DNA from: a virus
DNA length: 64,000 nt
Reading direction: 5' to 3' (one strand)
Virus record (IMG/VR): IMGVR_UViG_3300020469_000023
Location: 35,096 to 99,095 of that record
A program made the position numbers and the translations under genes. Below, piece by piece: positions 42,714 to 53,292 of this stretch (its first letter is position 1; each line of letters starts with the position of its first letter). The notes under the pieces were generated by a model that had not been told where the DNA came from, searched no databases, and worked only from the letters and a program-made list of their open reading frames with translations.

Positions 42714-43250
42714 ATGGCAGTAAACTCAACAGTACAAGTAGATGACCAGAATTTAACTACGAATCTAAACTATCTACAACCAACTGGATTCAAACTCTTA
42801 ATAGATAGAGTTAAATATCCTAATCTAGAATACTTTTGTCAAGGTGTTGCACACCCTAGTGTACAATTAAATCCTGTAGAATTACCTACAAGAAGAATTA
42901 CATCTGTACCACTTGCTGGTGATAAGATAACTCATGGTGAAATTACATTTACAATTATACTTGATGAAAATATGACTGGTTATAATGAAATGTTTAATTG
43001 GTTACAAAGACTTGTGAATGATGGGCAAGTAAATCCTATTGCAAGAAACACTAAGTTTCCAACATATGCAGATATAACTCTTGCAATACTGTCAAGTCAC
43101 AATAACACTACTCAAAAAATTAGATACAAAGATTGTTTGCCTACTGGTTTAGGTGCTATAAACTTTGTTACTACAACTGGTTCTGTAACGTACTTAACAT
43201 TCGATGCTACGTTTAGATTTAGTCAATTTGAGATAACAAAACAAACTTAA
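42714..43250 (+). CDS. gp3: Tail completion/tube terminator gp3
   Basis: NYLQPTGFK, EYFCQ, LDENMTGYNEMFNW; late promoter; upstream of uvsY. Confidence 0.8.
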   Translation: MAVNSTVQVDDQNLTTNLNYLQPTGFKLLIDRVKYPNLEYFCQGVAHPSVQLNPVELPTRRITSVPLAGDKITHGEITFTIILDENMTGYNEMFNWLQRLVNDGQVNPIARNTKFPTYADITLAILSSHNNTTQKIRYKDCLPTGLGAINFVTTTGSVTYLTFDATFRFSQFEITKQT

Positions 43251-43251
43251 T

Positions 43252-44334
43252 ATGAAAATAATAAAAACAGAAACTCCAAAAGATGTCGTTGAATATGATG
43301 GAGAAGAATATCCAGCAAACTTAGACCCGACAGATATAGTAGAAATTTTTCAAACACCACTTACTGGTGCATATAACTGGGACTATACTGTTCAAGATAA
43401 TCGTATTAAAAAACTATATGAATTAGGTAAAGAACTTAATTGGAATGTAGAAGTTGATGTTGATTGGTCACCAAAAAAAGTAGAAATAACAAACGAAGAG
43501 TTTGAGTTTGAAGATAATCAATGGTCAGACCACCCAGAATATAAAAAATGGGACACACCAAAACGTATGGAGTTTTTTAAAGATTTAGAAAGTTGGGGAA
43601 CAAGTCAGTTTCTTCATGGCGAACAAGGGGCATTATTAGTTGCAAGTCAATTAACATCGTGTGCGCCAACATTTAATGCAAAATTATATGCGGCCTCACA
43701 AACATTCGATGAAGCGAGGCATGTTGAAGCATTTAATAAGTATATTCAAACAAGATTAGGAAGACGATGGCCTATTGGTACAGCATTAAAAGGACTTTTA
43801 GATAAGATACTTACAGACCCTAGATGGGATTTAAAATTTATTGGTATGCAAGTAGTTATTGAAGGTTTAGCATTAGCGGCCTTTCAAGCGGCAAAAGAAG
43901 GTACTAGTGACCCTGTTTATAAACAAATGCTCGAATATATTATAAGAGACGAGGCGAGACACGTGACGTTTGGTATAAATTATCTTACCGACTTTGTTAC
44001 GACACTCTCAAAAGAAGAACAACTGGATAGAGCAAAGTTTGCCTTAGAAGCATGTACTGTCAGTAGAAACAGATTAAAAGCATATGAAGTATGGAATAAA
44101 TATAGTCTAAATATAGAAGAGACAGAACAGTATCAAAAAGAACATATATTTCAAACACAATTTCAAGATACTTTGTTTAGTAGAATAATGCCTAATCTTA
44201 AAAAGATAGGATTATTACAAGACGAATTAATACCTGAATATGATAAACTAGGTGTGATGGGTTATGTAAATGGTGATAATGATTTTGAAACAAGTTGGGA
44301 AGAACTTAGTAAACCGCTCAAGGAGGCAGTATGA
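43252..44334 (+). CDS. Ferritin-like di-iron protein (AurF-like)
   Basis: GEQGAL, DEARH, IEGLAL, DEARH. Confidence 0.8.
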   Translation: MKIIKTETPKDVVEYDGEEYPANLDPTDIVEIFQTPLTGAYNWDYTVQDNRIKKLYELGKELNWNVEVDVDWSPKKVEITNEEFEFEDNQWSDHPEYKKWDTPKRMEFFKDLESWGTSQFLHGEQGALLVASQLTSCAPTFNAKLYAASQTFDEARHVEAFNKYIQTRLGRRWPIGTALKGLLDKILTDPRWDLKFIGMQVVIEGLALAAFQAAKEGTSDPVYKQMLEYIIRDEARHVTFGINYLTDFVTTLSKEEQLDRAKFALEACTVSRNRLKAYEVWNKYSLNIEETEQYQKEHIFQTQFQDTLFSRIMPNLKKIGLLQDELIPEYDKLGVMGYVNGDNDFETSWEELSKPLKEAV

Positions 44335-44531
44335 CAGAAGATATAATTAATGTATTAATTAAACAATGTGAAGCAGGGATAGAAAGACACAAAATGAATG
44401 TTCGTGTCTTAACAGAAAAGAATGTAGGTCTTGCTGAACATGGTGACTTGATAATTACAATAGAAGGTGAATTAGACAAGGTTGCAAACTACGAAGATAG
44501 ACTAGCAGTATTAAAAAAATACTTTACATAA
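44331..44531 (+). CDS. Hypothetical protein
   Basis: 66 aa, GGAGG SD. Confidence 0.65.
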   Translation: MTEDIINVLIKQCEAGIERHKMNVRVLTEKNVGLAEHGDLIITIEGELDKVANYEDRLAVLKKYFT

Positions 44532-44551
44532 TCTGCCTAATACTGTATAAT
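44523..44551 (+). promoter_or_regulatory. sigma70-type promoter of uvsY
   Basis: TTTACA-17-TATAAT. Confidence 0.7.
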
Positions 44552-44574
44552 AAGCAGTTTATAGGAAATATATC

Positions 44575-45024
44575 ATGATAAATTTAGAATCAATACTTGC
44601 TGAGTGGAAAGAAGACTCACAAATATCAAAGAATCAACTAGACGAAGTATCTAGAATCACACCAGCATTACACTCGAAATATTTAGAATATCTCTCACTT
44701 ACTAAACTACGTATGAAGAAAGCAGAATTCGAACAAAAGAATCTGTTAAAAGAGAAATGGTTATATTATGAAGGTAAAATGCCACAAGAAGATATAGAAT
44801 CACGAGGTTGGAAAGCAGACCCTTATGATGGACTTGTTATCACAACAAAAGGTCAGAAAGAAAATTGGTATGATACTGATAAAGAAATTCAAGATTCTGA
44901 ACTGAGAATACAATATTTACAAACAACTATTGATACGCTAACTGAAATAGTTAACAATCTTACATGGCGACATCAAACGATATCGAACATGATTAAGTGG
45001 AGACAGTTCGAAACTGGTATTTAA
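44575..45024 (+). CDS. uvsY: Recombination mediator UvsY
   Basis: LHSKYL, WLYYEGK, ISNMIKWRQF. Confidence 0.9.
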   Translation: MINLESILAEWKEDSQISKNQLDEVSRITPALHSKYLEYLSLTKLRMKKAEFEQKNLLKEKWLYYEGKMPQEDIESRGWKADPYDGLVITTKGQKENWYDTDKEIQDSELRIQYLQTTIDTLTEIVNNLTWRHQTISNMIKWRQFETGI

Positions 45025-46520
45025 TGCGACCCGCAAACACAATAGAGATAGGTCTAAAAGACCACTCGATGATGTTGATAGATGCCGAAGGTCATCAACT
45101 CAAAGAATTATCTGAATATTTTTCATTCTTTGTCCCTGGACATAGATATATGCCAGCATTTAAACGTAAAGTGTGGGATGGCAAAATAAGATTATTTAAT
45201 CAAATGACACGTGAGTTAAATGTCGGTCTATATCCACATATAAAGAAGTTTGCTCTTGATAGAATGTATCCAATCCAACTTGTTGATAATGATGAGTATG
45301 GACATCCTGAACTTAAGAATAAAATACAACACAAGTCTTTAATAAAGTATCTTGATAGTCTCGATGCACCTTTTGAGATAAGAGATTATCAATACGATGC
45401 AATCTCACATGGTATCGAAAACAAAAGATGTTTATTATTGTCACCGACTGGTAGTGGTAAATCATTTATCATTTATAATCTGCTACGCTGGTATGCTGAC
45501 AATCATGATAAGAAGATGTTAGTTATTGTTCCGACAACAAGTTTAGTAGAACAATTATATAAAGACTTCTATGAATATGGGTTTGATGTTGATAATGAAG
45601 TGCATCGTATCTATTCTGGTAAAGATAAGATAACAGATAAACGTATCATTATATCTACGTGGCAATCTATCTATCGTCTTAAGTTTGATTGGTTTGAGCA
45701 GTTTGGTGCTGTCTTTGGCGATGAAGTTCATTTATTTAAAGCAAAGTCATTGACTGGTGTAATGAACAAATGTAAGAATGCTGAGTATCGTTTTGGTACT
45801 ACAGGTACTTTAGATGGGACAGAAACAAATAAACTAGTACTTGAAGGTCTATTTGGTATGACTCATAAAGTTATCGCAACACGTGATTTACAAGTTCGTG
45901 GTACTCTTGCTGGTTTAGATATTAACGTCTTACTATTAAGATATCATAATGATGTATGCCACATGATGAAAGGTAAGACATATCAAGATGAAATTGATTA
46001 TATTGTACGTCATGAAAAACGTAATAACTTTATTAAGAACATGACTTTAGATTTAGAAGGTAATACATTAGTCTTGTTTCAGTTTGTTGAAAAACATGGT
46101 AAAGAACTCTTTGAAATAATTAAAGATGATGCAGAAAAAAATCGAAAAGTTTTTTATGTATCTGGTGAAGTAGATGCGAAAGATAGAGAGCAGATAAGAG
46201 GTATCGTTGAAACACAAAAGAATGCAATAATTGTCGCATCATTAGGGACATTTAGTACAGGCATAAATATAAAGAACTTACACAACATTGTCTTTGCAAG
46301 TCCAAGTAAAAGTCAAATAAAAGTATTACAGTCGATTGGTCGAGGTTTACGACAATCAGATGATGGCAGTAATACAACTTTATATGATATAGCAGATGAT
46401 ATGCATGTCAAGTCACATAAGAACTTTACATTGAGACATAGTGGAGAAAGAATAAAGATATATGCGAAAGAACAATTTCCATATAAAATTATTCCTATTA
46501 ATTTAAAAGGTGATAAATAG
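45024..46520 (+). CDS. uvsW: SF2 helicase UvsW
   Basis: WDGKIRLF, SPTGSGKS, DEVH, QSIGRGLR. Confidence 0.95.
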   Translation: MRPANTIEIGLKDHSMMLIDAEGHQLKELSEYFSFFVPGHRYMPAFKRKVWDGKIRLFNQMTRELNVGLYPHIKKFALDRMYPIQLVDNDEYGHPELKNKIQHKSLIKYLDSLDAPFEIRDYQYDAISHGIENKRCLLLSPTGSGKSFIIYNLLRWYADNHDKKMLVIVPTTSLVEQLYKDFYEYGFDVDNEVHRIYSGKDKITDKRIIISTWQSIYRLKFDWFEQFGAVFGDEVHLFKAKSLTGVMNKCKNAEYRFGTTGTLDGTETNKLVLEGLFGMTHKVIATRDLQVRGTLAGLDINVLLLRYHNDVCHMMKGKTYQDEIDYIVRHEKRNNFIKNMTLDLEGNTLVLFQFVEKHGKELFEIIKDDAEKNRKVFYVSGEVDAKDREQIRGIVETQKNAIIVASLGTFSTGINIKNLHNIVFASPSKSQIKVLQSIGRGLRQSDDGSNTTLYDIADDMHVKSHKNFTLRHSGERIKIYAKEQFPYKIIPINLKGDK

Positions 46521-46524
46521 TATT

Positions 46525-47010
46525 ATGGAAGTAAAACATTTTAAGTTAGACACAGGAGAGGAACTCTTGTGCGAAGTGGTTGAGTGGTATGATGAAGAAG
46601 GATTCGAAGACGAAATAATTATTCGTAAAGCGGCCAAATTAGTTTACACTAAAACTAAAACTGGTATACCTTTTTATTCGCTTCGCCCATGGATGGTATA
46701 TCAAGAAAATCTTACAGACGTTATGACATTAGATAGAAATCATATTGTTGGTATGGCAACACCTCCAGATTATTTAGTTATACAATGGGAAGATGCTATT
46801 CTAGATATGCAAGAACTTCATAATGATAGACAAGCAGAGACTAAAAAAAGAATTGAAGAGTTTACAAAAAGAGCAGAACAAAAACCACAAAAACCGATAT
46901 CAGAAGTGATAGATGATTTATTAAATACTATGGATGGTGCCAAAGAGCAATTTAAAGACAATGTAATTGAGTTATTTCCTAACGATGAAAAGGACGATAC
47001 GATTCATTGA
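46525..47010 (+). CDS. Hypothetical protein (MEVKHFKL...)
   Basis: KLDTGEELLCEV; GATAAATA 5 nt upstream. Confidence 0.65.
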   Translation: MEVKHFKLDTGEELLCEVVEWYDEEGFEDEIIIRKAAKLVYTKTKTGIPFYSLRPWMVYQENLTDVMTLDRNHIVGMATPPDYLVIQWEDAILDMQELHNDRQAETKKRIEEFTKRAEQKPQKPISEVIDDLLNTMDGAKEQFKDNVIELFPNDEKDDTIH

Positions 47011-47036
47011 TATTCAGCGCCCCGGAGAACTTTAAG

Positions 47037-47065
47037 ATTATACCACACAGAACATAAATTGTCAA
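47037..47065 (-). promoter_or_regulatory. sigma70-type promoter antisense to upstream genes
   Basis: TTGACA-17-TATAAT on minus strand. Confidence 0.7.
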
Positions 47066-47080
47066 CCATTATTTTAAAGA

Positions 47081-47109
47081 TTGACTAAATATGTAATATA
47101 GAGTATAAT
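47081..47109 (+). promoter_or_regulatory. sigma70-type promoter of gp55
   Basis: TTGACT-17-TATAAT. Confidence 0.8.
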
Positions 47110-47135
47110 ACACAACAATTAAATATGGATATATT

Positions 47136-47747
47136 ATGACAGAGAAAAAATTAAAACCACAAGAAAAACCACACTATGTAAACAATAAAGATTTTTCATT
47201 AGCAGTAGTTGATTATTGTCAAGTCGCAGAGAAGGCAAAGAAACAAAAATCTAAAAAAGTACCAATTGTTCCAAATTACATTGCAGAATGTTTTCTTAAG
47301 ATTGCTGAAGGTCTATCACACAAATCAAACTTTATAAGATATACTTATCGAGAAGAAATGGTAATGGACGCTGTAGAAAATTGTTTGAAAGCAATTAAGA
47401 ACTATGATATTAAAACTGCAACAAGAACTGGTACACCAAATGCATTTGCATACTTTACTCAGATATCTTGGTATGCATTTCTACGTAGAATCGAAAAAGA
47501 AAAGAAACAACAAGACATTAAGTTAAAGTATATCGCTAACGTTGGTATAGACGAACTAGTTGACAATCAAGATGGCGATACGCCTAGTGATGAAGCAATG
47601 GCATTCGTTGATAATCTTCGTTCAAGAATTGATGGCGTAAGAGCAAATGATTTATATTGGAAAGATATTGTTACAGAAGAAAAAAAGAAGACAAGAAAGA
47701 GACGTGCTGTAAATGTTGATTCTGACTTAAAAGACTTCTTAACTTAG
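47136..47747 (+). CDS. gp55: Late sigma factor gp55
   Basis: HYVNNKDF, CFLKIAEGLS, NAFAYFTQI, AFLRRIEKEKKQ. Confidence 0.95.
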   Translation: MTEKKLKPQEKPHYVNNKDFSLAVVDYCQVAEKAKKQKSKKVPIVPNYIAECFLKIAEGLSHKSNFIRYTYREEMVMDAVENCLKAIKNYDIKTATRTGTPNAFAYFTQISWYAFLRRIEKEKKQQDIKLKYIANVGIDELVDNQDGDTPSDEAMAFVDNLRSRIDGVRANDLYWKDIVTEEKKKTRKRRAVNVDSDLKDFLT

Positions 47748-47804
47748 GTATACAGAACCCCCGGATAAGTCTCTAGTCTATAGTATATATACAAACTAAG
47801 TTTT

Positions 47805-48131
47805 TTAGAACTGTACAGAGACTCCACACCCACATGATGCTTCTTCATTAGGGTTTATTATCTTAAAGTATTCGTTAACACCATCGACAATCCAATCTAA
47901 AGTAGAACCTTGAAGAAATGGTATTGAGAGTTTATCTACTACTATATTGAACTTTCCGTAGTCTAGAATAATATCGCTTTCAGTAGTAGATTCAACATAC
48001 TTAATATAATACTCGTACCCAGCACACCCACCAGCAGTAACACCAAGGCGAATACCACTTCGATTGCTATTCTCCGTTCTCTCAATCGCTTTAGATATCG
48101 CTCCATCTGTTAACTCAATATCCATATCCAT
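47805..48131 (-). CDS. iscA: Fe-S cluster carrier IscA/HesB family
   Basis: GGCAGYEY, NPN...SCGCGVS. Confidence 0.88.
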   Translation of the reverse strand: MDMDIELTDGAISKAIERTENSNRSGIRLGVTAGGCAGYEYYIKYVESTTESDIILDYGKFNIVVDKLSIPFLQGSTLDWIVDGVNEYFKIINPNEEASCGCGVSVQF

Positions 48132-48561
48132 TCGGGTCTTCCCATTGGTTGTGTTTTCTATGTTTACTTTTTTCTTCCCAATCTTCAACTGCTTTCTTAA
48201 TACCTTCTTCTGCAAGTACTGAGCAATGTAATTTGATAGGTGGTAATTCTAATGCTTCTGCAATCTCTTTATCTTTTATTTGTTTTGCTTCATCAATAGT
48301 TTTACCTTTAAGCATTTCAACAAACATTGTCGATGATGCTATTGCACTACCACACCCATATGTTTTAAACTTGACATCTTCAATTACGTCTGTTTCTGGA
48401 TTAAGTTTGATATCTAATTTCATGACATCACCACATGCTGGTGCTCCAACTAAACCAGTTGCAACATTAGGGTCATTGGGGTCAAATCTACCTACTGCAT
48501 GTTTTTCTGGATTCTTTAATACAGATTCAAATCTGTCTACTACTTTACTACTATATGCCAT
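48115..48561 (-). CDS. iscU: Fe-S scaffold IscU (start MAYSSKV)
   Basis: GAPACGDVM, FKTYGCGSAIAS, LPPIKLHCSVLAE. Confidence 0.93.
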   Translation of the reverse strand: MAYSSKVVDRFESVLKNPEKHAVGRFDPNDPNVATGLVGAPACGDVMKLDIKLNPETDVIEDVKFKTYGCGSAIASSTMFVEMLKGKTIDEAKQIKDKEIAEALELPPIKLHCSVLAEEGIKKAVEDWEEKSKHRKHNQWEDPNGYGY

Positions 48562-48566
48562 ACTAC

Positions 48567-48574
48567 TATTTATA
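48567..48574 (-). promoter_or_regulatory. gp55-type late promoter of iscU
   Basis: TATAAATA-GTAGT-ATG. Confidence 0.75.
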
Positions 48575-48575
48575 A

Positions 48576-48705
48576 TAAAAAAAACCCCGGTCAAGGGAAA
48601 GTTGCGAACTTTCTGGTCTACCTCACCGGGGGTGATTGTCTATCGACTTTTGACTTTACGCCGTTACTTTATTTTAGAAATTTACCTCTCTTTCTCATTC
48701 TCAAT
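48576..48705 (-). ncRNA. Candidate ~130-nt small RNA
   Basis: Own sigma70 promoter, GC-rich 3' stem plus U-tract, only a 9-codon ORF. Confidence 0.5.
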
Positions 48706-48711
48706 ACAAGT

Positions 48712-48740
48712 ATTATAATAGGTTTGGCAACTTTTGTCAA
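48712..48740 (-). promoter_or_regulatory. sigma70-type promoter
   Basis: TTGACA-17-TATAAT. Confidence 0.85.
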
Positions 48741-48763
48741 CCATTTTTTTAAAAATATTTTAC

Positions 48764-48792
48764 TTGACAATTGTTGCTGAACTTGTTATTAT
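48764..48792 (+). promoter_or_regulatory. sigma70-type promoter
   Basis: TTGACA-17-TATTAT, 6 nt before ATG. Confidence 0.8.
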
Positions 48793-48798
48793 AACAAT

Positions 48799-49071
48799 AT
48801 GAATAATCTTACATTTCTAAAAGAAACTACTGATTGGGGTGAATACGAAACTCCTAATAACACTTACATTCTAAATGAGAAGGGTCAGTTAGTCGCTTTT
48901 ATTAGAGAGGGTGAGACTAGAGCAAGACGTTTTGCTACTCCTATCAAAAAGTTTGATAAGAGATACAGAACTTTTGAGAAAGTCAAAGTAACTCCCTCAG
49001 AGTGGGTCTGGGCAGATATCAGATATAGTAAAAAGAAATCTGCTACTTACGGGCCATACACAACAAAATAG
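48799..49071 (+). CDS. Hypothetical early protein
   Basis: 90 aa; ETTDW...PNNTY. Confidence 0.7.
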   Translation: MNNLTFLKETTDWGEYETPNNTYILNEKGQLVAFIREGETRARRFATPIKKFDKRYRTFEKVKVTPSEWVWADIRYSKKKSATYGPYTTK

Positions 49072-49074
49072 TTC

Positions 49075-49103
49075 TTGACAATTTTTGTTTAGTCAAGTAT
49101 AAT
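49075..49103 (+). promoter_or_regulatory. sigma70-type promoter of bS21
   Basis: TTGACA-17-TATAAT, 8 nt before ATG. Confidence 0.85.
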
Positions 49104-49111
49104 ACTAAACA

Positions 49112-49408
49112 ATGAGAAAAAATAACTATAACAGACGTCCACAGAGACCGAAGAAACGAAGATACGATGGACCAAAAGATACTGGTTTAACTGTATATGT
49201 TCGTGATGGCAATGTCGACCAAGCACTCAGAAGATTTAAAAAGAAAGTTAAAACTGCTGGTGTTATTGAAGACATTAAGAAAAGAGAATTTTTTGTTACT
49301 CGTAGAGAGAAACGTAGATTGCTAAAAGATAAAGCAATTCGTAGACAGAAAAGAGAAAACGAAGAATTTAAGAATACTTTCCTTAGGGGAAATAGAGGCA
49401 TTAGATAG
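49112..49408 (+). CDS. rpsU: Ribosomal protein bS21 with basic N-terminal extension
   Basis: VYVRDGNVDQALRRFKKKV...IKKREFF...EKRR. Confidence 0.88.
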   Translation: MRKNNYNRRPQRPKKRRYDGPKDTGLTVYVRDGNVDQALRRFKKKVKTAGVIEDIKKREFFVTRREKRRLLKDKAIRRQKRENEEFKNTFLRGNRGIR

Positions 49409-49565
49409 TCTTTAATTATCTAGCACATAGTCACTATTCGACTAAAGTGAAATCAGAATAGAGTTGGTTACTGAACACCCATGTGAATATGAGAAAGGTC
49501 ACATTACCTCTATAAGGGAAGAGACGAACATTAACTCTTCCCTTAAATGTAGAGGTTGTATTTTT

Positions 49566-49573
49566 TATAAATA
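49566..49573 (+). promoter_or_regulatory. gp55-type late promoter upstream of riboswitch
   Basis: TATAAATA. Confidence 0.7.
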
Positions 49574-49595
49574 CTAGTGTATAGAAATATACATA

Positions 49596-49743
49596 CGTTC
49601 ATCTTAGTATTATTGACTACTAAGACGGAAGTAGGAAGATAGGAAAACCTCTTTCTTTTTCATAAAGAAAGGTAAGCAAGTAAGCACTTATGGGTCAATA
49701 AATTCCAGTGCTGAACGAGACCGACAATCGACCGAAGGAACGC
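49596..49743 (+). ncRNA. Glutamine riboswitch-like element (glnA RNA family) with large insertion
   Basis: CGTTCA...GACGGAAGTAGG...CCGAAGGAACGC hallmark segments; precedes a YRG peptide gene. Confidence 0.75.
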
Positions 49744-49807
49744 TATGAGAAGGGTGTACAACGAAAGTTGTATGTACGAAATCGATTAGAAAACTGGAGG
49801 GATACAC

Positions 49808-49972
49808 ATGTCTTATTACAGAGGTATCAAAGTAACTCCTGAAAATATTGCTAAAGAGAAAAATTCTCCAAAAGCAGGTATTTACAGAGGAACTAAGCAC
49901 GATGCGGAAGTATCTAAAGACAACACGTCTACTAGCGAATTAAATTATCGCGGTGTAAAACATGTTGCTTAA
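49808..49972 (+). CDS. 54-aa YRG-repeat peptide (DUF4278-like)
   Basis: MSYYRGIK...IYRGTKH...NYRGVKHVA; GGAGG SD; not in the ORF track. Confidence 0.8.
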   Translation: MSYYRGIKVTPENIAKEKNSPKAGIYRGTKHDAEVSKDNTSTSELNYRGVKHVA

Positions 49973-49993
49973 TAGATAACTTGCTATCAGAAC

Positions 49994-50023
49994 AAGGGCA
50001 GACTTAACATCTGCCCTTTTTTT
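49994..50023 (+). terminator. Rho-independent terminator
   Basis: AAGGGCAGA-loop-TCTGCCCTT plus T-tract. Confidence 0.85.
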
Positions 50024-50201
50024 ATGTTATGTATGAAAGTATAACTATACTGCATAGAGTAATTGCAGGTATCATGTAGAGAGAAGTATTAACATTTGAT
50101 ACTTCAAATTTCTTTTCTGCTACATCTAAACCACCTGCTTTTATTACTTTGTGTAATCTGCCAGACTTCATAAGTTTGTGTAGTTTTTTCATATGTTTCA
50201 T
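50022..50201 (-). CDS. 59-aa basic protein with C-terminal TM helix
   Basis: MKHMKKLHKL...IPAITLCSIVILSYIT; TATAAATA at 50236-50243. Confidence 0.55.
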   Translation of the reverse strand: MKHMKKLHKLMKSGRLHKVIKAGGLDVAEKKFEVSNVNTSLYMIPAITLCSIVILSYIT

Positions 50202-50267
50202 TAATGTGACAATTGTGTGTCACCTATGTAACATTTATTTATAAGTTTATTATTTTACAAATAATGG

Positions 50268-50296
50268 TTGACAAATGTTGTAAACTTTGTTATTAT
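50268..50296 (+). promoter_or_regulatory. sigma70-type promoter of candidate large ncRNA
   Basis: TTGACA-17-TATTAT. Confidence 0.8.
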
Positions 50297-50302
50297 AACA
50301 AC

Positions 50303-50810
50303 ACTCGATAACGTTAACTTTGTAATGTGAGTTAATAGTTCAGGGTCAATTGAGGTGAGAGTCCTCTTGAAGAAGAGACCTATCATACATGGTCCACTTG
50401 TAACCTGAACCTAGTTGGTGAGAGTTTTGCGACTCGATAAACAACGTAAGTTGATGTTTTGTGCCAAGGTGGCCAATTCATTAATGACGAAGCAGTTAAA
50501 TGTGGGAAAATAGATGCGAGTAGAGATACATGGTTTGTGAACCCCATGGAAACAATAGATTGATTATCTAGAGAATACGAAATGGTTGGCAAGTAAAACA
50601 ATGATTATGAGTTAATCACATAAGTCATAGTTTGAAGGCCGTAACATATGTAAACAATTTTTGAAAGAGAATTGGGGAATTTACCCGAAAGACGAAGTAT
50701 CTGCACCTTGATGAGCATGGAATTGCAAGGCGCCAAATCTCGATGGTAGTGAGTGGTAATGAGAAATGAATCAATACGAGGCGAAGAAGGAGTGGTGACA
50801 CTCCTTTTTT
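50303..50810 (+). ncRNA. Candidate ~500-nt structured non-coding RNA
   Basis: Bounded by promoter and terminator, no substantial sense ORF, many helices and GNRA loops. Confidence 0.65.
50787..50810 (+). terminator. Rho-independent terminator
   Basis: AAGGAGTG-GTGA-CACTCCTT plus T-tract. Confidence 0.85.
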
Positions 50811-50816
50811 GTATAT

Positions 50817-50850
50817 AAAAAAAGGGAGTCTCGAAAGACTCCCCCTTTTT
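50817..50850 (-). terminator. gp23 terminator (UUCG loop, probably bidirectional)
   Basis: GGGAGTCT-TTCG-AGACTCCC plus T-tract on minus strand. Confidence 0.9.
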
Positions 50851-50869
50851 GGTCTGTAACCTATACAGA

Positions 50870-52174
50870 TTAAGTTAAGATATTAGTAACCTTAAATATT
50901 CTGTAGTAGAAGTTAGTTTTAACAGATGCAAGACCGTTAGCAGGTGTAGAACCTACAAATGGGTTTGACGCCATTCCGTATCTTGTTTTAAAACCTATTC
51001 TAGGTTGGAAAGTATCTTCCCCAACTGCTTTAACCATTTGTAAAGGTACATATGGGCAGTAGAAAACACCAGCGTCATAAGGGTTAGTACCTTTATAACC
51101 TACAGTACAGTAGTCTGTGTTTGCATATGGGTCGATATACACTTTGATTCTTCCGTTAAGAAGACCAGCAAATGTATTTCCAGTATCGTCAACATTTAAG
51201 TTGTTCGCTATACCTGGAGAGTAATCTAAAGTTCCAGCGGCCGCTAAAGCAGTTGCAACATCAGAAGAACAGATTAGGATATTTCCTTTTCCTCTTCTTG
51301 AGTCTTTCGCTATCTGATTACATTCTCTATCTATTTGAACACCTAAACCTTTGAACTTCTCAGCACTCCATCTTCCATCAGCATCAGAAGACATATTGAA
51401 CACACCATTAACAGTAACGTTTGCTTGTTGGGCACCGTCTTTTGCTTGTGAGTTAATAGTTCTGATAACTTCTCTATTGATTTCCGCTAAGATTTCAGTA
51501 GATAAGATGTTAGCAAGTTCAGTTTCAGCATCTAAACCGTGGATTGCTTTAAGGTCTTGAGCAAGTTCTAAAGTGTACTCTGCTTTTAAGGCACGTGAAA
51601 CAGCAGTTACAGTTGATTTCTCAATTGTAAAACCCATTTCATTGAAAGTACTACCAGTAGTTGCACCAAGTTCCTCAGCATCTACAGTAGGCATACCAGA
51701 AGCGGTAAGAGCAGTTAATCTTAAACCTGCTGAGTCAATACCATTGTAACCTGAAACGTTGTCAGAATCATGAGTTCCAGATGAGTCACCTGAAAATCTA
51801 GTTTCTGCTTCGCTGAACAATGCTTCTCTATTAGAAGTTGAACCACCTTGGTATCTTGCCTTCATAGCAAAGATTAAACCAGTTGGTCCATTCATTGGTT
51901 GAACACCACATACATCGTATGCGATTAAGTTAGGCATAGCACGTCTAACTAATGAGATTAAGACTGGGTCAAAATTGGACACACTTGAAGTATTGTTAGC
52001 AGGTGCGGCCTCAAATAACATAGTCTCGTTTTGTTCTGCAATTGCTTTCTCTTGGTTTTCCAAAAGGGCCGCAGTTACGGAACGCCTGTGATTGTCTTTA
52101 ATGGCGCCAGCAGATTCTTCATCTAAGACTGGTTTCCATTTTTCAATCAGGTTGTCATAACTTTGAATTTCCAT
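50870..52174 (-). CDS. gp23: Major capsid protein gp23
   Basis: LVRRAMP, GVQPMNGPTGLIFAM, SRALKAEY, FYCPYVPL, FKTRYG. Confidence 0.98.
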   Translation of the reverse strand: MEIQSYDNLIEKWKPVLDEESAGAIKDNHRRSVTAALLENQEKAIAEQNETMLFEAAPANNTSSVSNFDPVLISLVRRAMPNLIAYDVCGVQPMNGPTGLIFAMKARYQGGSTSNREALFSEAETRFSGDSSGTHDSDNVSGYNGIDSAGLRLTALTASGMPTVDAEELGATTGSTFNEMGFTIEKSTVTAVSRALKAEYTLELAQDLKAIHGLDAETELANILSTEILAEINREVIRTINSQAKDGAQQANVTVNGVFNMSSDADGRWSAEKFKGLGVQIDRECNQIAKDSRRGKGNILICSSDVATALAAAGTLDYSPGIANNLNVDDTGNTFAGLLNGRIKVYIDPYANTDYCTVGYKGTNPYDAGVFYCPYVPLQMVKAVGEDTFQPRIGFKTRYGMASNPFVGSTPANGLASVKTNFYYRIFKVTNILT

Positions 52175-52200
52175 CGTTATTTTCCTATGTTTAATCTAAA

Positions 52201-53292
52201 TTAATTTTTAGATTGAGTTTTTCTTAAAGTAGAAACATACTTATCCATTGAAGAATTAGATTCGATTAACTCGTCACTTTCTCCTTCACTTTCTTCGGAT
52301 ATCATATCGTCACTACCGCTAGGTTCGTTAGAGAAATGTGCTTCTTTAACAACTTTAACTTTTTCTGCATACTTTTCAGCATCTTCAAAGTCTAAGTCAT
52401 TAACTAAAGATTTTAATTTCTCAACTTGTGTGTCAGCAAGGTCAGAAGAAGATTCTCTGATAATTTCCTCTTTCTTCATTTCTTCTAACTCACCGCTTTG
52501 GTCGATAACTTTCTGAGTAGTTTCATTGAGTTTAGACTCAAGTTCTTCTACTTGTTCAGCAAGTTCGTCAACTAGGTCAACTTTGGACTCAGGAACTTCG
52601 ATGTAAGATTCACTAAATAAATCTTTCAACTTAGACATAAACCCTTCGGCGATTTCAGTCCTAAGACCGTTCTCAACCTGAAGTTCATTTTCCTTAACCC
52701 AATTTTCAACTACATAATTAAGGTATGAATCGACTTTCTCAACCATTTCAGATTTAGTTGAAGATAACTCTTCTTCTAATTCTTCTTTGTATTGAGATTC
52801 TAATCTATCAATTTCTTCTGATAGTTTAGATTTTACTGCCGCTTCAAATATTACTGCAGTTTTTTCCTTGAACTCATCACTTAGAGTTGCTTCGGATTCG
52901 ACTAGTGCATTTAAATCGCCCATAGTGTCAACTTCTGGTGATTCAACAATTGCTTCACCTTCCATTTCTTCTACTTCTTCTTTTTTCATGTGATAATTGG
53001 CATACATGCCTTCCATGTCTGATTTAGACATTTTCAACATTTTGTCAGTCATCGCACTAATCATGCCTGCTTTTGTTTTCGGTGCAGGTGCCTGTTTAGG
53101 TTTTACCGCATCGGCCGCTTTATCTACAGATGCAATAGACTCAGGTTCGCTTACTGGACTGGCGTCCTTAGCACTACCTTTTGCCTTTACACTTGACATT
53201 GCTTCCGCTTCTTCGAGAGTTTCTTCCACGATTTCGTTAACTACTTCATCAGTAGAAGTCTCGACTTCATCATTTCTGATTTCATCTGTCAT
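52201..53292 (-). CDS. gp22: Prohead core scaffold gp22
   Basis: FKEKTAVIFEAAV, KVDSYLNYVVENW. Confidence 0.93.
   Translation of the reverse strand: MTDEIRNDEVETSTDEVVNEIVEETLEEAEAMSSVKAKGSAKDASPVSEPESIASVDKAADAVKPKQAPAPKTKAGMISAMTDKMLKMSKSDMEGMYANYHMKKEEVEEMEGEAIVESPEVDTMGDLNALVESEATLSDEFKEKTAVIFEAAVKSKLSEEIDRLESQYKEELEEELSSTKSEMVEKVDSYLNYVVENWVKENELQVENGLRTEIAEGFMSKLKDLFSESYIEVPESKVDLVDELAEQVEELESKLNETTQKVIDQSGELEEMKKEEIIRESSSDLADTQVEKLKSLVNDLDFEDAEKYAEKVKVVKEAHFSNEPSGSDDMISEESEGESDELIESNSSMDKYVSTLRKTQSKN

Follow-up and report, generated by a model that had tools for sequence, protein, structure and literature searches.

A non-coding RNA unit of about 500 nucleotides beside gp23 in a pelagimyophage/Melnitz-like phage

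INTRODUCTION

What does a T4-type phage keep in the longest part of its sequence that lacks a sizeable reading frame? The locus that raises this question spans positions 49409-50869 (1,461 nt) of a 64,000-nt stretch of viral DNA, referred to here as the window. It comes from a virus record of 99 kb whose completeness is estimated at ∼57%, and nowhere else does the record extend so far without an ORF of at least 75 amino acids (aa). A reading made from the letters of the window and its ORFs (the sequence-only reading) had proposed that this locus encodes a stand-alone, large structured non-coding RNA of about 500 nt, possibly of a new class, with its own promoter and terminator.

Phages that infect SAR11- and OM43-type bacteria are among the most abundant viruses of the ocean. 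To our knowledge, almost nothing is known about their non-coding RNAs besides tmRNA and the glutamine riboswitches. A phage RNA that has neither a reading frame nor a known family, and that is repeatedly assembled from ocean RNA libraries, would be a concrete target for work on RNA structure. Here we describe the borders, variants, conservation, and distribution of this RNA unit and weigh what it might be.

RESULTS

Since the nearest cultured relatives by gp23 are C48C1 (69%), OM43 phage Melnitz (62%), and Pelagibacter phage HTVC008M (61%), we assign the source to the pelagimyophage/Melnitz-like T4-type phages of marine heterotrophs, an assignment that excludes a cyanomyovirus. To the right of the RNA unit, the minus strand carries gp23 (50870-52174) followed by the genes for the scaffold protein and the prohead protease, and to its left the plus strand carries the genes for UvsY, a UvsW-type helicase, and the late sigma factor gp55. 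The region between gp55 and gp23 is variable. Apart from the RNA unit, it contains a NifU-like gene (48115-48594, minus strand), a 90-aa ORF without an assignment, a gene for ribosomal protein S21, and a glutamine riboswitch that precedes a DUF4278 ORF, the last segment being closed by a terminator at 49994-50018. The gene order of 42714-52174 is unlike that of the cultured relatives. In HTVC008M, Melnitz, Mosig, and C48C1, the tail, uvsY, and uvsW genes directly follow gp23 and are co-directional with it, whereas in the window uvsY, uvsW, and gp55 are encoded on the other strand and run towards gp23, and the variable cassette region lies where the two sides meet.

The RNA unit begins with a predicted sigma-70-type (early-type) promoter at 50266-50296 on the plus strand, composed of GGTTGACAA, a 17-nt spacer with a TG, and TATTAT. 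In the promoter scan, TTGACA-17-TATTAT (50268-50296) scored 11 out of 12 with the extended TG, and transcription is predicted to start near A50303. Within the window, there are five occurrences of the motif GGTTGACAA-N15-TAnnAT, compared to an expectation of 0.03, and a further copy of the promoter, located in another part of the genome, matches it with 88% identity across 43 nt. Solely from the type of this promoter, we infer that the unit is expressed early.

At its other end, direct reading as well as the minimum free energy (MFE) and consensus folds place an intrinsic terminator at 50781-50812 on the plus strand. It consists of a GGAGTG/CACTCC stem (50789-50804) with a GTGA loop, followed by six T residues (50805-50810), and in both folds an upstream A-tract lengthens the stem from 6 to 14 bp. 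The consensus terminator scan missed this element, probably because pairing of the stem can continue into the T residues. The terminator is the same in all complete variants of the unit except L092, where a G>A change at the base of the extended stem retains the pair. No same-strand gene lies downstream; what follows is the terminator hairpin of gp23 (50824-50843, minus strand), which the terminator scan found and which is separate from the RNA, with compensatory changes in its arms between variants, and then the convergent gp23 itself. The promoter score, the repeats of the motif, and the terminator stem with its T6 tract support a stand-alone unit between its own promoter and terminator and bear out the two elements that the sequence-only reading had named, TTGACA-17-TATTAT and a terminator at 50787-50810.

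The sequence is contained in 20 public runs, including eight RNA libraries from four studies. We aligned the contigs of four RNA runs, from four studies, to positions 49000-52500. One run (X11) contained a single 473-nt contig covering 50307-50778 without any difference, another (X17) a single 451-nt contig covering 50329-50774, in which the only difference is an allele present in other variants, and a third (X18) two contigs covering 50313-50529 and 50572-50780. The contigs from these three independent studies are confined to 50307-50780, their flanks being uncovered, while the DNA assemblies (the window, L003, and L090) continue through both borders. On the left, the contigs end 4 to 26 nt from the predicted start, and on the right, they end at the foot of the terminator stem. 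In X11 and X17, there is no coverage of 49936-50286, and a gap precedes the contigs of gp23. Such an island between uncovered flanks is consistent with a discrete transcript; contigs reveal neither the strand nor true ends, and the coincidence of their ends is a weak hint only. One contig from an oligo-dT library bridges 50621-51547 and extends into gp23. The RNA contig of X11 has a depth of 182.6, compared to 7 to 25 for gp23 contigs of the same genotype; the runs had been chosen because they contain the RNA, and such depths cannot rank genes, so that these values are no evidence of abundance.

Copies of the unit were gathered from four IMG/VR loci by a gp23 search, from two more by word scans, and from three others by a metagenome scan. 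They represent six distinct variants, which are 90 to 96% alike and consist mostly of two haplotypes and their recombinants, with indels of 2, 1, and 1 nt between them. Since these indels are not multiples of three and break every frame, and since the ORFs match no protein family, we conclude that the unit is non-coding. No conserved coding frame, which would speak against an RNA, emerged among the variants, and ORFs are broken in some of them. The longest sense ORF with an ATG start has 19 codons, exactly the upper limit given by the sequence-only reading; this limit does not hold with TTG and GTG starts, for which ORFs of 32 and 34 codons exist. Four variants (L003, L004, L089, and L092) retain an uninterrupted 48-aa sense ORF, of which only the ATG-started 35-aa part lies on the contig of L004. 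In the window and L090, a 2-nt insertion splits this ORF, and L090 has an additional in-frame stop. Both long antisense ORFs contain an indel, and a search of 5.8 billion protein clusters returned no entry for the two longest ORFs on that strand. Peptides from all six frames of the unit had no match in the related loci, PHROGs, or Pfam.

Covariance-model searches of Rfam 15 with permissive filters, using either 1.6 kb or the RNA alone, gave no match to the RNA at the gathering threshold or at E values of ≤10, and the strong hit that would have removed the suggested novelty was not obtained. The same holds for GOLLD and ROOL, neither of which matched at E values of ≤10, and for the models of RNase P RNA and of group I and group II introns, none of which matched the RNA body. 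The only intron match in the neighborhood (49754-49777) reached 16 bits and was dismissed as a chance hit. ARAGORN, applied to the window and to the genome, predicted neither tRNAs nor a tmRNA. The latter result matters because genomes of the Melnitz-type/pelagimyophage group carry a two-piece tmRNA (ssrA) directly behind an early promoter (PMC9004378). This tmRNA and the RNA unit share the phage group, the early promoter, the terminators, and the glutamine riboswitch region, but the unit matched tmRNA neither in ARAGORN (0 genes) nor in the tmRNA families of Rfam, and neither a tRNA-like domain nor a tag frame was seen in it. The earlier statement that the locus contains no tmRNA, RNase P, or intron core agrees with these searches.

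Relatives of the RNA were scarce. No similar DNA was found by blastn at a distant setting among 50,697 GenBank phage records, and an nhmmer profile and blastn applied to 80 gp23 loci recovered close copies only. IMG/VR was scanned four times for exact words and once in purine/pyrimidine code, each time with the same five to six contigs as the result, and one degenerate scan of JGI metagenomes added three further copies, 90 to 96% alike. A degenerate core word had no match in 185,579 prokaryote genomes, and a covariance model of the 3′ core gave no hit below an E value of 0.8 in the genomes of C48C1, HTVC008M, Melnitz, and Mosig and in 53 related loci. Nor did we find a description of this RNA in the literature. 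We regard the unit as a new family of predicted non-coding transcripts that lies outside Rfam.

The transcript body (50303-50812, plus strand; ∼510 nt) is without a conserved frame and has a G+C content of 39%, compared to a genome mean of 33.1%. This value is in the top 2.2% of windows of the same size and would suit a folded RNA, the genome being AT rich, but it is equaled by gp23. The body does not diverge to the same degree throughout; the figures that follow are differences per 100 nt between the two main haplotypes, the window and L003. The 5′ domain (50303-50445, plus strand; 143 nt) has 4.9 differences per 100 nt, the middle part (50446-50671, plus strand) has 15.5, a value like that of intergenic sequence, and holds all of the indels, and the 3′ core (50672-50766, plus strand; ∼95 nt) has only 2.1. 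For comparison, gp23 has 4.9 differences per 100 nt, S21 has 3.4, and the adjacent non-coding spacers have 13 to 30. Two parts of the RNA are therefore kept as well as the adjacent essential genes, whereas the middle drifts.

Within the 3′ core, 83 nt (50672-50754) are identical in both main haplotypes, and across all six variants this run contains a lone C>T change, in L090, which keeps a G-U pair. Recent mosaic recombination rather than constraint could also yield such a run: identical runs of 155 to 161 nt are found in gp23, and long ones also in S21. The helices of the 5′ domain, namely, a hairpin at 50314-50336, a GTTCAGG/CCTGAAC helix that encloses smaller hairpins, and GAGTT-TTGC-GACTC, show no variation among the variants. 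The middle part contains hairpins at 50442-50453 (with a GTAA loop), 50529-50547, 50556-50570, and 50596-50633, and the majority of its changes preserve pairing, with an excess over chance that is not significant. We conclude that the RNA unit is probably functional.

The predicted fold of the RNA is less distinctive than had been proposed. Its MFE is −134 kcal/mol, with a folding z-score of −3.2 to −3.5. Among 13 coding windows of the same phage, z-scores range from +0.6 to −4.2, and three lie between −2.8 and −4.2; the impression of a region packed with helices does not exceed this background. In the RNAalifold consensus of the six variants (90 to 96% alike), 114 of the 133 pairs are invariant and two have changes on both sides, a number also reached in 47 of 500 column shuffles, and covariation among the homologues, a check that had been put forward with the proposal, is not significant. 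When placed on the fold of the window, the 40 substitutions of L003 keep 12 pairs and break 12, compared to 8.7 and 14.0 for random substitutions (P of about 0.09 for kept and 0.27 for broken pairs), and the MFE of L003 is preserved no better than that of random mutants (P = 0.19).

All of the local hairpins proposed earlier are present at the positions given for them. Of the long-range helices, CAAGGTG/CACCTTG is lost in L092, L089, and L003 through a 2-nt deletion and an A>G change, CACCTTG itself being invariant, and TGCCAA/TTGGCA loses one to two pairs in the same three variants. With an unexceptional z-score, covariation that is not significant, and two long-range helices broken, a large conserved ornate structure has no significant support. 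More convincing is a predicted GNRA hairpin, CAATTTTT-GAAA-GAGAATTG (50655-50674, plus strand), whose pairs change across the variants. One of them passes through the series U-A, U-G, and C-G, and another changes from U-G to C-G; in L003, one nucleotide is gone from each arm and the GAAA loop is retained. On these comparisons, we consider this hairpin the best-supported helix of the RNA.

The RNA unit is confined to a narrow clade of pelagimyophage/Melnitz-like phages, and even there it is not universal. Four sister phages (L001, L002, L006, and L008) have a gp23 that is 97 to 98% identical to that of the window and lack the unit. As a general rule, the expectation that related marine myoviruses would have homologues beside gp23 is therefore wrong. 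In these sisters, the shared promoter block (50154-50281 of the window) is followed by a 125-nt unit instead, which is a copy of a promoter-to-terminator unit that the window carries on the minus strand (48742-48585), before the NifU-like gene. In more distant relatives, the block 48765-50810 is absent or rearranged. Because this presence and absence and the swapping of units behind a common promoter match the behavior of shuffled early cassettes, we regard the RNA unit as an accessory element, a cassette present in some genotypes of one narrow clade. The shuffling appears to proceed by recombination at the repeated promoter and terminator sequences.

The 125-nt unit of the window (48585-48742, minus strand) has its own GGTTGACAA...TATAAT promoter, ∼125 nt of sequence, and a terminator of the form CCCCGGT...ACCGGGG followed by T8. 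It had no match in Rfam and may be either an sRNA or a leader that acts as an attenuator. Between it and the NifU-like gene, L003, L015, L019, and other relatives have ∼350 extra bases (positions 7545-7902 of L003), which are missing from the window at about 48570. A 59-aa ORF without a family match (50022-50201, minus strand) is divergent from the promoter of the RNA, and its 5′ part together with the upstream sequence (50154-50281) is 75 to 88% conserved in many relatives, although the flanking sequences are swapped.

DISCUSSION

Taken as a whole, the explanation that we prefer is that of an independent non-coding RNA gene on a shuffled cassette, with an RNA that is proposed to act early and in trans through its conserved ends, and we give it a probability of about 0.55. 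Host RNA polymerase would start at the sigma-70-type promoter of the phage, at ∼50303, and produce an RNA of ∼480 to 510 nt. Transcription would head towards gp23 and end at the RNA's own terminator, ahead of that of gp23, and the unit would be one interchangeable cassette within the variable region between gp55 and gp23. In early infection, the transcript would then act as RNA and in trans, with the 5′ domain and the 3′ core as its working parts and the middle as a tolerant spacer made of hairpins. As to the mechanism, the RNA may serve as a decoy or scaffold that binds or sequesters a protein of the host or the phage; pairing with the gp23 mRNA would be a weaker alternative. We prefer a decoy or scaffold over a base-pairing sRNA because of the size of the RNA, its two separated conserved domains, and its tolerant, hairpin-rich middle. 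A bolder version, which we hold only tentatively and consider rather doubtful, would see in it the first representative of a new class of large, folded RNAs that are abundant in the sea, expressed early by pelagimyophage/Melnitz-like phages of streamlined marine heterotrophs, and built on a 5′/3′ core, with a decoy or scaffold role in host takeover or counter-defense.

Several features of the locus might also be expected of a transcribed relic, in which a small-gene cassette would have decayed and its retained promoter and terminator would frame an RNA without function. The 48-aa ORF, intact in four variants and split in the window and L090, would be the remnant of the gene, and the intergenic rate of change in the middle part, the narrow distribution with loss of the unit in sister phages, and the lack of significant covariation fit as well. 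We nevertheless consider this history unlikely. Substitutions in the 48-aa ORF between variants are mainly non-synonymous, no Shine-Dalgarno sequence precedes its ATG, and it has no relative among protein families or in protein databases. Moreover, the 5′ domain and the 3′ core lie outside this ORF and are conserved to a degree similar to that of gp23, while the flanking spacers are three to six times more divergent. If these ends were kept for a peptide instead, the transcript would be the mRNA of a micro-protein, encoded by a 25-codon TTG-started ORF at 50672-50749 and/or by an ORF of 13 to 17 codons at 50355-50408 that follows GAGGTGA. The 25-codon ORF does coincide with the invariant 3′ core: the 83-nt run begins at its TTG and stops 5 nt past its stop codon, and the sole change in that run (CCC>CCT in L090) is synonymous, as are two of the three changes in the 13-codon ORF, the third being Pro>Arg. 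Yet neither ORF has an ATG start or a family match, and the TTG of the longer one sits in the 3′ arm of the GNRA hairpin, only 2 to 3 nt from the purine run, and has no credible start signal. Synonymous change is nearly absent, which points to constraint on nucleotides rather than on amino acids, and the changes that are observed are also compatible with the hairpins. A coding role of this kind therefore seems improbable to us.

We grant no better prospects to an antisense regulator. Positions 50326-50341 (plus strand) are exactly complementary over 16 nt to the mRNA of the adjacent convergent gp23 (DNA copy at 51447-51462), and this stretch is invariant in all variants of the RNA; an early RNA that paired there, with codons ∼238 to 243, might alter the stability or translation of the message. 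However, a 16-nt match somewhere in the genome is obtained with 1.9 to 4.5% of shuffled RNAs, and the target lies inside the gp23 coding sequence, in a conserved part that is identical in phages without the RNA. The stretch is also mostly paired within predicted helices, and the pairing would leave the length of 500 nt unexplained. (Searching the RNA against all long ORFs by RNAduplex without a length limit returned whole-length duplexes and was uninformative.) Finally, the unit might serve in cis, as a primer transcript or other DNA element of an origin. In T4, oriF and oriG are R-loop origins near uvsY, and here too a promoter-driven non-coding transcript is found less than 6 kb from uvsY and uvsW. 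But this transcript has a strong terminator, the G+C content of its body is above the genome average, which speaks against an AT-rich unwinding element, and an origin would not be expected to be missing from near-identical sister phages. By analogy with T4, such a role may be conceivable, but we consider it very improbable.

The preferred reading, that of an independent RNA gene on a shuffled cassette, has parallels among phage elements that are already known. T4 stable RNAs (species 1 and 2 and RNA C/D) and the pRNA of phi29 are abundant, stable RNAs of 120 to 175 nt made from host-type promoters, and phi29 pRNA works with the head-assembly machinery; we know of no RNA requirement in the packaging motors of T4-type phages. 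Like these RNAs, the unit is phage encoded, non-coding, and equipped with a host-type promoter, but it is longer, bears no sequence or model similarity to them, and has a position next to gp23 that is not conserved. With GOLLD (RF01998) and ROOL (RF03087), it shares being a phage-borne, stand-alone, non-coding RNA of several hundred nucleotides. It differs from both in its failure to match their models at E values of ≤10, in its very narrow distribution, and in having no adjacent tRNA genes; with ∼500 nt, it is also shorter than GOLLD, and its covariation is not significant.

The arrangement of the cassette resembles that of promoter-early stem-loop (PeSL) units, which usually contain small ORFs. 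PeSL modules have reportedly been described in T4-type phages by Arbiol et al. in 2010. As in PeSL modules, a repeated early promoter and stem-loop terminators flank small interchangeable units within a variable region, and the same promoter block precedes a different unit in sister phages. The locus thus combines the repeated early promoter, the stem-loops at the borders, and the presence and absence among close relatives that are typical of PeSL modules, but differs from them in that the RNA unit comprises ∼500 nt without a conserved frame.

The RNA unit opens the question of what accessory RNAs contribute to the infection of streamlined hosts. Genotypes with and without the RNA coexist with near-identical capsid genes, a natural contrast that can be tracked in time-series metagenomes. 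The present case is limited by the small number of variants (six, 90 to 96% alike) and warrants modest claims only.

Two neighbors of the RNA unit in the variable region deserve mention in their own right. The phage-encoded S21 gene (49112-49408, plus strand; 59.5 bits in Pfam) differs between the two haplotypes at 3.4 positions per 100 nt, and a protein pattern scan of 185,579 prokaryote genomes revealed no close relative of the phage protein. The glutamine riboswitch (49594-49746, plus strand; 40.8 bits in Rfam) carries a 96-nt insertion in place of the usual short P3 and is followed downstream by the small DUF4278 ORF (49808-49972, plus strand). Its locus is represented by many contigs from marine RNA libraries, which derive from the source phage as well as from its relatives.
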